NCBI GenBank assembly: GCA_965208435.1
Contig: OZ242337.1
Coordinates: 960,998-1,024,997 of the forward strand
Direction of reading: 5' to 3'
DNA: 64,000 nucleotides
DNA from: Candidatus Aldehydirespiratoraceae bacterium
Lineage (GTDB): Bacteria > Actinomycetota > Acidimicrobiia > Acidimicrobiales > Aldehydirespiratoraceae
Program-made: the position numbers and the translations under genes
In this document: in pieces, positions 11,359 to 23,431 of the stretch
Position numbering within the stretch: the first letter of the stretch is position 1
How the letters are laid out: each line of letters starts with the position of its first letter
The notes under the pieces: generated by a model
The model's input: the letters and a program-made list of their open reading frames with translations, nothing else
The model's database searches: none
What the model was told of the DNA's origin: nothing

Positions 11359-13176
11359 TCACCTTGAACCTTCACAAAGTAACATATACAGACCAGCCGT
11401 CCGCCAGTACACCCACGGCACACAGTTCGGGAAGGTCCGACTGTGGGCAAGAGCCGCGTCCTGCACGCGGAAGAACCTGAACCAGTATTTGGAGCTGTTA
11501 TAGGCAGGCAGACTGTCAACCGAAGGGAACGACGCAGGAGGGTCAGGGTCCACCACTACAGGCGCAGGCGGCACCGTCGTCGTCGTTGTGGTCGTGGTGG
11601 TTGTTGGCGGCACCGTCGTTGTCGTTGTAGGCGGAACTGTCGTGGTGGTAGTGATCGTCTGGTCGTCGTTCTCGAACGGATCAGGCAAGTGTGGGCAAGC
11701 ATGCGGAGCTACCCCATAGTTGGTCACAATGACAGCCAAACCCAAACTCTTGGCCGCCGCTCTCGCAAGTCGCCCAGCGAGGCCCAACTCCGCCAAGTCT
11801 CGCGCCAGAGACGAGTGTTCCCAACACAACGCTAGGTGCAGAGTCGGGGGTGTTACGAACGGCGGAGGCTGCCATCCCCCTAAGCCAGGACCCGGGGCGT
11901 CGGAGGGCGTTGCTCGCTCAGTCGCCTCGACGAAGCTCTCACCTACGTAGATGCCCACACCCACCACAGTGTTCACTGCGGCACTAACGGCGTTCTTGAT
12001 CCCGTCTCCGATTGCGCTCCAGTTGATGCGCGTGACGGTTTGTGTTTTGATGAATGGGTCTTTGGGTTGGTGGCAGCCTGTGTGGGTGTCCGTCTCTTCC
12101 CATTCCCTGACCGGAAGGTGCGCTCCGGCGGGTTTGGATAGCGTGAACCGTGTCTCGTCGACGACTTTGAACGCCCAAGCCTCAGGCAGAGGGGGTATAC
12201 GCTGGCCGTTTGGGCAGGTGTGTTGTGTGGGGTCGTGTCGGGTGGTGGTTTTGGTGACGGTTTTGGTGAAGGGCGCGACCCGGACCTTCTTGTTTTCGTA
12301 GTTCTCTACGTCGACGGTGACAGTCTTGGTGAACGGCGCTACCCGCACCTGTCGGGTCTGATAGTTGAACACGTCTGTCCGCACGGTGGAGGTGAACGGC
12401 GCTACCCGCACCTTCTGGTTTTCGTAGTTGAACACGTCCACCGTCTCGGTCTTGTGGGTCGGCGCGACCCGCACCTGACGCGTCTGATAGTTGAACAACG
12501 GGACCTGTCCGACTTTGGTGAACGGCGCTACCCGCACCCGGCGGGTCTGGTAGTTGTGCACGTCCACCTGCACGGTCGTGGAGAACGGCGCGACCCGGAC
12601 CCGGGTGTAGACGCATCCACGCGGCGGCCGGCAATCGCTTGTCACGGTCCGGTAGTTGTACACCGGGATCGTCCTCGCCTCGCTGAACGGCGCTACCCGC
12701 ACCTTCTGGTTTTCGTAGTTGAACACCGCGACGCGGCCTGGCCCAGCAAACGGCGCTACCCGCACCCGATGCGCCTCATAGAAATACACCTGCGACGTGA
12801 CAGTCTTGGTGAACGGAGCGACCCGCACCCGACGGGTCTGATAGTTGAACACATCTATCGTCGTGGTCTCAGAGAACGGCGCCACCCGCACTTGCTGGTC
12901 CTCATAGTTGAACACGTCCACCGTCGTCGTCTCAGAGAACGGCGCAACCTGAACCCGGCGAGTCTCATAGTTGAACACGTCCACCTCCTCTGTGGTTGTG
13001 GCATCTTCACCGTCATGAGCCGACACCGGCGACAGAACAGACGCGAACACAGCCGCGCAGACGACCACGACACAACAACACACCGCGTGCAGCCCCACCG
13101 ACAAGCCGGGACGCGGCGCGTCGCCACTCATCTTTCGGTGTCGACGGCCTGTGTCGGGAGCATCGGGCAGGTTCAT
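11359..13176 (-). CDS. Secreted/surface protein with eleven 21-residue tandem repeats, a globular region and a Thr/Pro-rich stalk (no recognised family)
   Basis: An N-terminal hydrophobic signal/anchor (AVCCCVVVVCAAVFASVLSPVSA) is followed by repeats with consensus [VI]DVFNY[EQ]xxxVRVAPF[ST]xTxT. Later comes TTTTTVPPTTTTTVPPTTTTTTTTTTVPP. A GGAG Shine-Dalgarno sits 6 nt upstream of the ATG. Confidence 0.8.
   Translation of the reverse strand: MNLPDAPDTGRRHRKMSGDAPRPGLSVGLHAVCCCVVVVCAAVFASVLSPVSAHDGEDATTTEEVDVFNYETRRVQVAPFSETTTVDVFNYEDQQVRVAPFSETTTIDVFNYQTRRVRVAPFTKTVTSQVYFYEAHRVRVAPFAGPGRVAVFNYENQKVRVAPFSEARTIPVYNYRTVTSDCRPPRGCVYTRVRVAPFSTTVQVDVHNYQTRRVRVAPFTKVGQVPLFNYQTRQVRVAPTHKTETVDVFNYENQKVRVAPFTSTVRTDVFNYQTRQVRVAPFTKTVTVDVENYENKKVRVAPFTKTVTKTTTRHDPTQHTCPNGQRIPPLPEAWAFKVVDETRFTLSKPAGAHLPVREWEETDTHTGCHQPKDPFIKTQTVTRINWSAIGDGIKNAVSAAVNTVVGVGIYVGESFVEATERATPSDAPGPGLGGWQPPPFVTPPTLHLALCWEHSSLARDLAELGLAGRLARAAAKSLGLAVIVTNYGVAPHACPHLPDPFENDDQTITTTTTVPPTTTTTVPPTTTTTTTTTTVPPAPVVVDPDPPASFPSVDSLPAYNSSKYWFRFFRVQDAALAHSRTFPNCVPWVYWRTAGLYMLLCEGSR
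12253..12984 (-). repeat. 63-bp (21-codon) coding tandem repeat array, 11 units
   Basis: The Ala of the VAPF motif falls at residues 78, 99, 120, 141, 162, 196, 217, 238, 259, 280 and 301. Spacing is exactly 21 except for one unit carrying a 13-residue Cys-containing insert (DCRPPRGC). Confidence 0.9.
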
Positions 13177-13190
13177 TGCGGTCTCCGGTT

Positions 13191-13562
13191 TCTACGCGGC
13201 GGATAATTGCCGTTATCGGTCACCTAGACCCCCGACCCGCGGCACGCGAGACACACAGGCTCCGGCTATGAGAACCCCTGATCGGGGTGTTGTTCAGAGA
13301 GTTCTGAAACGAGCCGGGACCGTCGCCTGTGGCTGGTGTGTGGTCGCTGGTTCGTGCAACAACCGGCAGAACCAGACGTTGCCGGACCCGACCGCGGGAC
13401 TCTGCGACCAAGAAACCTGCCGACCGGCAGACCAGTCATATCCCCAGGTCAACTGCACAATCACCAGGTCGTGCCGAGGGTGGATCAACGCTCGGCATCA
13501 ACAAAGGCTTGACAAGCACCGAACTGAACGTGGAGGATAACGGCAATTATTGGTCAGGTAGA
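13191..13562. promoter_or_regulatory. Candidate invertible DNA switch: two 38-bp dyad-symmetric recombinase-type sites in inverted orientation
   Basis: Site L (13191-13228) is TCTAC gcggcg GATAA TTGCCG TTATC ggtcac CTAGA. Site R (13525-13562) is TGAAC gtggag GATAA CGGCAA TTATT ggtcag GTAGA. The central 6-bp spacers are reverse complements of each other. Site L begins 15 nt upstream of the repeat-protein ATG, and site R ends 50 nt upstream of the recombinase ATG. Confidence 0.6.
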
Positions 13563-13612: not shown

Positions 13613-14635
13613 ATGCATCACACCACAGGTAATCTCGGCGGCCCTACCCGACTCGACGCACTCAACGGCTTGAGTGTTGAGGCGCTCGAGCGTTTGGTTG
13701 TTGAAGGTAAGGCTGCGGCGTATTCGCCCAACACGCACAAGACCTACGACGTCGGGTACAGGAACTGGGCCCGATGGGCGACCAGTCACAGTTGTCGTGT
13801 GTTCCCAGCAGACCCGAGACATCTTCAGATGTGGCTCGCGACGCTGGCCGCCCAGAACATGAAACCCTCAACTTGGTGCACCTACCTCGCCGGGGTCGCC
13901 CACCACCACCGCGGCTGCGGGACTGCGAACCCGGCTCATGACCCCCAGGTCCGTCTGCTGCTGCGCGGCTTGACCCGCCGAGCCGCCGCCGGCGGCCACA
14001 CTCCCAAACAGGCCGCGGCGTTGCGTTGGAACGATATACAACACATAGCCGACACCGCTCATGAACCGCGTCGCAACCAGCCCGGCGGGCGGGCCGAGAC
14101 CCCGGGCCAAGCCCGCCAACGCGGCGACGAAGACGTCGCCATGGCCGCGGTCGCCCACGACGCAGCGTTGCGCTCAAGCGAACTCCTCGCGCTCACCTGG
14201 AAAGACATCGAACCCTCACAAGACGACCGGCTCGACGTCGTGAGAATCCGCCGCTCCAAAACCGACCAGACCAGCCAAGGCGCTGCCGCGCCCATATCAG
14301 AGTTCGCCACCCAAGCGCTCACCCGCATAAGACCCGCTGATCTGGACCCCGGCCGGCGCATCTTCAACATCTCAGCAAGCACACTCAACCGTCGCCTCAA
14401 AACCGCTGCCCGAACCGCAGGCATCGAACCCGCACGCATTAGCGGTCACTCACCGCGAGTCGGGATGGCCCAAGACCTCGCCGCGCACGGCGTCACCATG
14501 GTCGGCCTCAAACAAGCAGGCCGCTGGAAGAGCTCCGCAACTGCCAGCCGCTACACCCAACACCTCAACGCCCACCACACACCAGCCGGCCGATACCTCA
14601 AAACCCAACACCGAACCAACCCCCCAGACCCGTAA
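13613..14635 (+). CDS. Tyrosine recombinase / phage-integrase family, Cre-like architecture
   Basis: Has the catalytic-domain markers LRSSELLALTW (Arg), GHSPRVGMAQDLA (HxxR) and GRWKSSATASRYTQH (Trp/His ... Tyr). The N-terminal core-binding region (HKTYDVGYRNWARWA) resembles Cre-type recombinases. Confidence 0.9.
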   Translation: MHHTTGNLGGPTRLDALNGLSVEALERLVVEGKAAAYSPNTHKTYDVGYRNWARWATSHSCRVFPADPRHLQMWLATLAAQNMKPSTWCTYLAGVAHHHRGCGTANPAHDPQVRLLLRGLTRRAAAGGHTPKQAAALRWNDIQHIADTAHEPRRNQPGGRAETPGQARQRGDEDVAMAAVAHDAALRSSELLALTWKDIEPSQDDRLDVVRIRRSKTDQTSQGAAAPISEFATQALTRIRPADLDPGRRIFNISASTLNRRLKTAARTAGIEPARISGHSPRVGMAQDLAAHGVTMVGLKQAGRWKSSATASRYTQHLNAHHTPAGRYLKTQHRTNPPDP

Positions 14636-23300: not shown

Positions 23301-23431
23301 GCCGGGCGCAGCCGGAGCCGGATCAAACTTCGCCGGGCGCAGCCGGAGCCGCGACCGCTATCGCCGCGCGAGACCGGAGCGTCCCGCTGAAATCCCACAA
23401 GCCTGACCCCGCGGCTCCGGCTGCGCCCGGC
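23301..23431. repeat. 20-bp GC-rich element in three copies (two direct, one inverted)
   Basis: gccgggcgcagccggagccg occurs at 23301-23320 and 23332-23351. Its exact reverse complement occurs at 23412-23431. Confidence 0.9.

Follow-up and report, generated by a model that had tools for sequence, protein, structure and literature searches.

The intergenic region between a gene for a 605-aa secreted repeat protein and a gene for a Cre-like tyrosine recombinase probably is, or very recently was, a recombinase-driven inversion switch (inverton). The region lies in the window, the 64-kb stretch of DNA analyzed here. An invertible switch had been proposed at this position in a sequence-only reading, and the proposal is supported by a conserved architecture, by covariation of the site spacers, and by one homologous locus in the flipped orientation. 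Each structural prediction of an inversion switch that was checked on the assembled sequence was borne out, namely inverted sites with an asymmetric core, an intact adjacent recombinase gene, and the lack of space for a promoter ahead of the target gene, all of which are conserved in the related loci examined. The sequence of the locus suggests that it may still flip, and the specific ON/OFF assignment given below has about even chances of being correct.

Candidate recombination sites L and R

Site L is a predicted lox-like recombination site at positions 13191-13228, composed of an outer arm (13191-13206), the spacer TTGCCG (13207-13212), and an inner arm (13213-13228), and it reads TCTACGCGGCGGATAA-TTGCCG-TTATCGGTCACCTAGA. 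Site R at 13525-13562 reads TGAACGTGGAGGATAA-CGGCAA-TTATTGGTCAGGTAGA. Its inner arm (13525-13540) is weak and overlaps a promoter-like element, and it is followed by the spacer CGGCAA (13541-13546) and an outer arm (13547-13562). A direct sequence check bore out the positions and sequences of the two 38-bp sites, and their inverted orientation was also correct, as CGGCAA is the exact reverse complement of TTGCCG. The dyad symmetry described within each site exists, though not perfectly: 12 of 16 positions agree between the 16-nt arms of L, and among all four arms the inner one of R is the weakest.

The L/R pair forms a 27-nt inverted repeat that is 81% complementary, with arms 318 nt apart. 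It ranks first among the eight inverted repeats found in the whole window with a 12-nt exact seed and a distance of at most 600 bp. Exactly two copies of the 14-mer core ATAATTGCCGTTAT, one on each strand, are present in the window, where 0.64 matches would be expected by chance even with three mismatches permitted. The pattern GATAA-N6-TTATY is present in the window only at sites L and R. A separate perfect inverted repeat of 20-22 nt, the GC-rich GCCGGGCGCAGCCGGAGCCGCG, lies at 23301-23431 together with a second direct copy of one arm; its arms are 56-91 nt apart, and it is unrelated to the switch sites.

Site L and the ATG of the 605-aa gene are separated by a 14-nt leader (13177-13190, minus strand), not by 15 nt as the sequence-only reading had it, and this leader holds only the Shine-Dalgarno (SD) sequence GGAG (13183-13186). 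This 14-nt leader leaves no space for a promoter ahead of the gene, as that reading had pointed out. On the other side, the distance from the end of site R to the recombinase ATG (13613) is 50 nt, which agrees with the earlier figure. The arrangement typical of invertons, with inverted repeats around a short segment beside the gene presumed to be regulated, is kept in 42 collected site pairs.

The Cre-like recombinase

The presumed invertase is a Cre-like tyrosine recombinase of 340 aa encoded on the plus strand at 13613-14635. It matches Pfam Phage_integrase (5e-14) and has a SAM-like N-terminal domain. All 17 of its solved-structure matches are Cre or the Cre-derived Tre (E ~1e-16). Cre residues R173, K201, H289, R292, W315, and Y324 align with conserved residues of the recombinase, and this R-K-H-R-W-Y set is invariant or nearly so among 46 recombinase homologs. 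The Cre structure matches, the alignment of catalytic residues, and their conservation in homologs show that the earlier label "Cre-like" is correct. A site-specific recombinase is thus encoded near the inverted repeats, as in known invertons, and it carries the catalytic R, K, H, R, Cre-type W, and Y of Cre/lox-type enzymes.

Nearly all homologs of the recombinase come from metagenome-assembled genomes (MAGs) of Acidimicrobiia, many of them named Candidatus Poriferisocius (sponge symbiont). The family is multi-copy, with several paralogs per genome, and one paralog (P0033) is found in the genome of the window itself. A protein scan of the viral contigs of IMG/VR found no close relative, the best match being 29% identical, and relatives at no more than 29% identity indicate that the family is not phage-borne. 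Homologs from Gemmatimonadota and Longimicrobiales (36-40% identity) had no comparable inverted-repeat pair, which suggests that the switch is confined to the Acidimicrobiia clade. Two other roles for such an enzyme were rejected. The integrase of an integrated mobile element, where att sites in direct repeat flank the element and a tRNA gene is often the location, does not suit sites that are inverted and 334 bp apart, in a 64-kb window where no tRNA was found. A phage integrase system was discarded on the lack of a tRNA, the inverted sites, and the absence of close viral relatives.

Many relatives have long poly-C tracts at the 5' end of the recombinase ORF (L024:3225-3260, L042:338-360, L028, L043, L051:3920-3945, and L164:113-135), and the recombinase gene of the window has no such tract. 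Locus L042 has C7 with the ATG in frame, and its ortholog L024 has about C22 with the upstream ATG out of frame. These tracts could represent a second, slipped-strand control layer on the invertase or a homopolymer assembly error. Three shortened homologs of 273 aa (L053, L054, and L055) have neither a Phage_integrase Pfam match nor a site pair, and a tRNA-like sequence precedes them by a few hundred bp. Their role is probably different, for example that of island integrase remnants.

The presumed target gene

The putative target gene (11359-13176, minus strand) encodes a secreted protein of 605 aa, as judged from its ORF and translation. The protein is composed of an N-terminal hydrophobic signal or anchor segment, about 11 repeats of 21 residues with the pattern ..VFNYxTRxVRVAPFTKT.., a Thr/Pro linker, and a Cys-containing C-terminal domain. 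Comparison with Pfam and NCBIfam gave nothing above the cutoff, and its approximately 20 homologs are unnamed and restricted to Acidimicrobiia. The AlphaFold model is all-beta in the repeats but of low confidence (pLDDT 45), too poor for a fold search. A C-terminal motif, C-x-P-W-V/A-Y/T-W ... L-C-x-R, is common to the big proteins of this group (11359-11430 in the window, and L020, L008, and L134). It is the best-modelled part of the 605-aa protein (pLDDT ~77) and may be a sorting or anchoring module.

A family of related loci

The ATAA-N6-TTAT site pair was found 325-349 bp apart just upstream of a recombinase at 34 genome loci in addition to the window. The set was raised to 42 pairs by adding variants with TTAA arms and one mini-version. 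Across these pairs, which come from Acidimicrobiia MAGs and metagenomes, the spacing is 325-357 bp, with a single exception at 118 bp. The exception is the mini-switch L032:3719-3874, where TTAA-TTGCCT-TTAA and TTAA-AGGCAA-TTAA enclose a TTGACA and a good TATATT -10 element.

The family follows one layout, in which site L stands beside the SD and ATG of a signal-peptide protein and is followed by the interior, site R, and usually a recombinase gene. The SD and ATG lie 14-24 nt from L in most of 35 tabulated loci, and in three the first ATG of a long ORF is at 52-53 nt. The L-adjacent proteins range from 129 to >1150 aa, and several of the larger ones have fibronectin type III (fn3) domains.

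A scan of metagenome contigs for TTGACA-N22-25-ATAA-MRRCRD-TTATYNRNC returned 53 stretches, nearly all of them chance matches from unrelated habitats. The real family loci among them were L109, L110, L113, and L134 only, and all four have the same orientation as the window (state A). The scanned collection evidently holds few sponge samples. The loci of the recombinases P0013, P0027, P0006, and P0130 likewise gave only state A or orphan switches.

Covariation of the spacers

The spacers of L and R are exact reverse complements of each other in 40 of the 42 pairs, even though at least ten distinct spacers occur (TTGCCG, TTGCTG, CTGCCG, TTGCCT, TTGTCT, ATGCCT, ATGCCG, TCGCCT, TCGCCG, and TTGCCC). 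Five of the six spacer positions vary on both sides (36 cells), none of 500 shuffles reached the observed values, and slid controls were near zero. The complementarity between L and R is 98-100% at each of the six positions. Towards the outside of the arms it falls to the value expected from shuffling, and the covariation ends at the edges of the spacer. Mutual information is near zero in the outer arms as well, except where the arm type changes between ATAA and TTAA in both sites. Conserved arms around a core that is matched to its partner are what is expected of the crossover region of a tyrosine recombinase and not of repressor operators. Inverted arms around an asymmetric spacer of 6-8 bp that is identical between partners are also the hallmark of Cre/lox-type sites.

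Paralogous switches in one genome usually differ in their spacers, as on NZ_OZ244791.1, where ATGCCT, TTGCCT, and ATGCCG are found. With different spacers, exchange between loci would be blocked. There are exceptions to the rule: L020 and L061 share one spacer, as do L025 and L033.

The interior segment and its promoter-like element

The interior of the putative invertible segment spans 13229-13524 (296 bp). In 35 loci its length is 287-311 bp, and its sequence is barely alignable across the family. A MAFFT alignment of the 35 interiors revealed TTGACA as the sole fully conserved element, located 22-25 nt ahead of the ATAA of site R. In the window, this -35-like hexamer is at 13509-13514 on the plus strand, just inside site R. 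It is exact in 35 of 35 tabulated loci and faces the recombinase in every fully assembled locus, including the window. TTGACA is rare in the window, with 15 occurrences where 22.5 are expected.

A weak -10-like hexamer, GAGGAT (13533-13538, plus strand), follows TTGACA after 18 nt and lies within the inner arm of R. Close relatives have GAGAAT or ACGAAT at this position, and most others have TAnnnA, which is unorthodox. Because a strict consensus promoter scan of the window did not call the TTGACA/GAGGAT pair, a working promoter at this element is a provisional reading of its sequence and conservation. As assembled, the -10-like hexamer ends 74 nt before the recombinase ATG. Both hexamers are on the interior side of the crossover point and would therefore move together on inversion, which would bring the pair to a point 38 nt upstream of the ATG of the 605-aa gene, the SD lying in between. 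The promoter of that gene had been claimed to lie inside or beyond the segment. As assembled, the one conserved promoter-like element, the TTGACA inside the segment, points at the recombinase and not at the repeat-protein gene. No conserved leftward promoter and no conserved terminator were found in scans of the window and of 35 to 42 related loci.

The same alignment showed a conserved interior block, TCATATCCCCAGGTCAAC (13436-13453, plus strand), with the family pattern T.T...C.GGT..A. Some 64 nt separate it from the TTGACA downstream. Neither the promoter scans nor the terminator scans account for it, and it is possibly an architectural or accessory-protein site; simple Cre/lox-type systems recombine without accessory proteins or arm sites. 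In four relatives, the block follows a GC hairpin and resembles a plus-strand terminator.

Proposed mechanism of inversion

In the proposed mechanism, the Cre-like recombinase would bind as dimers at both 38-bp sites, each with 16-bp inverted arms around a 6-bp asymmetric spacer. The sites would synapse, and strand exchange would take place within the identical, oppositely oriented spacers. The exchange would flip a segment of ~334 bp (13207 to 13546) that holds one outward-facing promoter, composed of TTGACA at 13509, 18 nt, and GAGGAT. In state A, the orientation as assembled, this promoter would read into the recombinase gene, and the 605-aa gene, with the SD alone between L and its ATG, would be silent. 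In state B, the inverted orientation, the promoter would be placed 38 nt upstream of the ATG of the 605-aa gene, which would be turned on, and the recombinase gene would lose the segment promoter. The predicted flipped junctions are L', TCTACGCGGCGGATAA-TTGCCG-TTATCCTCCACGTTCA (written out TCTACGCGGCGGATAATTGCCGTTATCCTCCACGTTCA), and R', TCTAGGTGACCGATAA-CGGCAA-TTATTGGTCAGGTAGA (written out TCTAGGTGACCGATAACGGCAATTATTGGTCAGGTAGA).

Orientation in related genomes

Loci L042 (MAG p16x33bins.34) and L024 (MAG jk18x27bins.72) are orthologous, with nearly identical recombinase and downstream amidohydrolase regions. The recombinase-side site of L042 consists of a strong arm, AGGCAT, and another strong arm, and no TTGACA stands beside it, as predicted for state B. 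The interior of L024 matches L042 on the minus strand, which is the sole minus-strand match among 150. The alignment of L024 as assembled to L042 begins at the first spacer base and runs to the right only. When L024 is flipped in silico between the spacers, the two are colinear through the site and into the interior. The contigs of both loci are named with the prefix k141_, which suggests an assembly with 141-mers. If the prefix is read correctly, the join in L042 is not an artefact of a 38-bp repeat and needs real spanning reads. From this sequence comparison, with L042 flipped relative to L024 and the breakpoint exactly at the spacer, it is evident that inversion at exactly these sites has occurred in nature in this family. 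A search with the L042 recombinase found no closer relatives. The comparison of orientation in related genomes suggested by the sequence-only reading thus gave one opposite ortholog pair; L136, the 88%-identical ortholog of the window, has the same orientation as the window.

A second line of observation comes from the recombinase P0127, which is carried in identical form by eight Logan contigs from different sequencing runs, with the P0127 locus in SRR8304785, SRR8304767, SRR8304786, SRR22586461, and SRR22586462. The five contigs listed in full all share one starting base, which lies 9 nt to the left of the ATAA in site R. Logan assemblies use k = 31, and the first 31-mer of these contigs ends at the first base after TTATCCGCCGC. 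A state-B junction, in which the inner R arm and the core would be joined to the outer L arm in reverse complement (family consensus TTATCCGCCGCG), would part from the state-A flank at this point. At this locus, the base after AACTAGCCAATAAAGGCAATTATCCGCCGC would be A, the recombinase flank, in state A, and G followed by the SD and ATG in state B. The contig breaks fit a graph branch caused by mixed orientation; the alternative is a paralog with the same 30-mer.

Among the assembled loci, some 45 show state A and a single one shows state B, so inversion must be rare, biased, or counter-selected, and state A is clearly the resting state. If the recombinase is made only in state A, accumulation of state B would be expected, which is opposite to the observed bias. 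The bias could be reconciled with the mechanism by paralogs with similar arms acting in trans, by a fitness cost of state B, or by extra control of the recombinase.

Alternative explanations

One alternative is a fossil switch, in which the family inverts while the copy in the window is effectively locked in state A, with a fixed recombinase promoter and a 605-aa gene that is silent or otherwise driven. The ortholog L136 in the same orientation, the locked-looking relatives with a spacer mismatch or deletion, and the poor -10-like hexamer of the window favor such a locked copy, but the spacers of the window match perfectly, its arms fit the family consensus, and both ORFs are intact, which makes this reading rather unlikely. 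The near absence of flipped assemblies would suit a model without any inversion, where L and R are operators at which the recombinase-like protein or another dimeric regulator represses both divergent genes, perhaps by looping; the overlap of R with the -10-like element and of L with the 5' leader points the same way. A repressor, however, needs no exact reverse-complement spacers, and only the 6-bp core covaries. The breakpoint of the flip in L042 coincides exactly with the spacer, and the catalytic residues of the recombinase are invariant. Repression at two operators is therefore considered improbable.

A switch of the cwpV type, with the promoter outside the segment and inversion altering a leader structure or terminator instead of promoter direction, would explain a terminator-like minus-strand hairpin in the interior of the window (13420-13435). 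Only the closest paralog has this hairpin as well, however, and terminator-like sites occur in 10 of 35 interiors at scattered positions. The lack of a conserved leftward promoter to the right of R or in the interior, against the universal TTGACA within the segment, makes this variant highly improbable. Least credible, to the point of being negligible, is a miniature transposable element (MITE) or mobile-element terminus bounded by the inverted repeat, or a long-range RNA helix formed by its pairing in a transcript. An inverted-repeat-bounded unit of ~370 bp is indeed present at many loci, and the sequence-only reading had held that scattering over unrelated loci would indicate a MITE. The unit instead always abuts a secreted-protein gene and usually a recombinase gene, and its interiors diverge while this context is constant, which argues that it is not a MITE. 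As for an RNA helix, the spacer pairs with mismatches do not consistently allow G-U pairing on either strand, and the window gave no Rfam match. A recombinase-driven inversion switch continues to be the preferred interpretation of the locus.

Comparison with known inversion systems

Promoter inversion is a well-known means of phase variation in gut and pathogenic bacteria. In the E. coli fim system, a segment of ~300 bp with the promoter for a surface-structure gene is inverted between 9-bp inverted repeats with flanking half-sites by the adjacent FimB/FimE, and IHF and Lrp are needed. The locus in the window is similar in that an inverted-repeat-bounded segment of about this size with a promoter-like element is located between a gene for a surface or secreted protein and an adjacent tyrosine recombinase. 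The parallel with fimS drawn in the sequence-only reading therefore applies to function, but not to the components. All PDB matches of the recombinase are Cre and none is FimB/FimE-like, and the sites are self-contained lox-like 38-mers, in contrast to the 9-bp repeats of fimS; membership in the fimS and FimB-FimE family was rejected on these grounds. The recombinase gene is also divergent from the target gene, and the promoter-like element faces the recombinase in the resting state, unlike in fimS.

Cre/loxP of phage P1 and mined relatives of it, such as Dre/rox and Vika/vox, share with the candidate switch the catalytic set, including the Cre-type Trp, and inverted arms around a short matching asymmetric spacer. 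The geometry is 16-6-16 in the window and 13-8-13 in loxP, and the similarity to Cre is low, detected by profile-type search only (E 1e-16). Cre/loxP serves plasmid dimer resolution and circularization, whereas the element in the window is chromosomal, multi-copy, and proposed to invert a promoter.

Bacteroides invertible promoters for capsule, fimbriae, and S-layer, which use Tsr-type tyrosine recombinases and Mpi, resemble this family in having many paralogous promoter invertons per genome that act on surface molecules of host-associated symbionts. The Acidimicrobiia switches differ in phylum and usually have their own dedicated recombinase instead of a global invertase. Their targets are secreted repeat or fn3-domain proteins, and their assemblies are almost always in one state. 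In Mycoplasma (Xer1/vpma) and C. difficile (RecV/cwpV), a tyrosine recombinase also drives phase variation of surface proteins. In vpma, however, the promoter stays fixed and genes are shuffled onto it, and in cwpV a leader terminator is flipped, whereas the movable part in the window carries a promoter-like element.

Within the literature that could be searched, there was no report of inversion switches for sponge symbionts, Acidimicrobiia, or Ca. Poriferisocius; for Actinobacteria at large, a survey paper describes invertons predicted by computation. If the switch is active, uncultured sponge symbionts would vary secreted repeat and fn3-domain proteins stochastically, with several modules per genome. 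Eukaryote-like proteins of the repeat and fn3-domain class are thought to mediate host recognition. The family also offers a large number of natural pairs of a Cre-like recombinase and its 38-bp sites, with spacers that are mutually incompatible, and these could serve genome engineering.

More speculatively, these self-limiting promoter toggles may form a network, a possibility that is tentative and on balance doubtful. Each promoter would drive either its own invertase (resting) or a secreted host-interaction protein (flipped), and the several paralogous modules of a genome have similar arms but often different spacers. Cross-acting recombinases would thereby be able to reset flipped modules, and the spacers would bar exchange between loci. 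Eukaryote-like (fn3 or repeat) surface proteins of uncultured sponge symbionts would then be expressed a few at a time, and dozens of Cre/lox-like recombinase-site pairs with known spacer variants would come from the family as a natural library.

Duplicated, decaying, and rearranged modules

One related chromosome carries three modules within 40 kb (L001-L003, OZ224042.1, 2.56-2.61 Mb), and each is composed of a large minus-strand gene, ~430 bp of intergenic DNA, and a recombinase gene. The modules are interspersed with transposase fragments (HTH_Tnp_1, DDE_Tnp_1_4, IS110, and Transposase_mut), and the region looks like a hotspot of module duplication.

Decay shows in L001, L046, and the P0013 loci, where the spacers disagree at one base, and in L051, whose spacer has lost 1 bp. 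Two orphan switches, L134 (Ga0209022_1006274) and L180 (ERZ15614206 NODE_39), have L, an interior, TTGACA, and R beside a gene for a big secreted protein, with no recombinase gene beyond site R. They suggest that recombinases may act in trans or that these modules have decayed. Downstream of the switch-controlled gene in L180 (4488-6800), a 114-aa ORF is present at least four times in tandem, once every ~707 bp.

In L137 (ERZ25084331 contig_72), an ortholog of the window locus has been rearranged. Its recombinase is 90% identical to the window over the C-terminal two-thirds, as is the luciferase-like gene, and the N-terminus of the recombinase is derived from another paralog. The switch and the big gene are gone from this locus, and a 66-bp fragment of the big gene is left.
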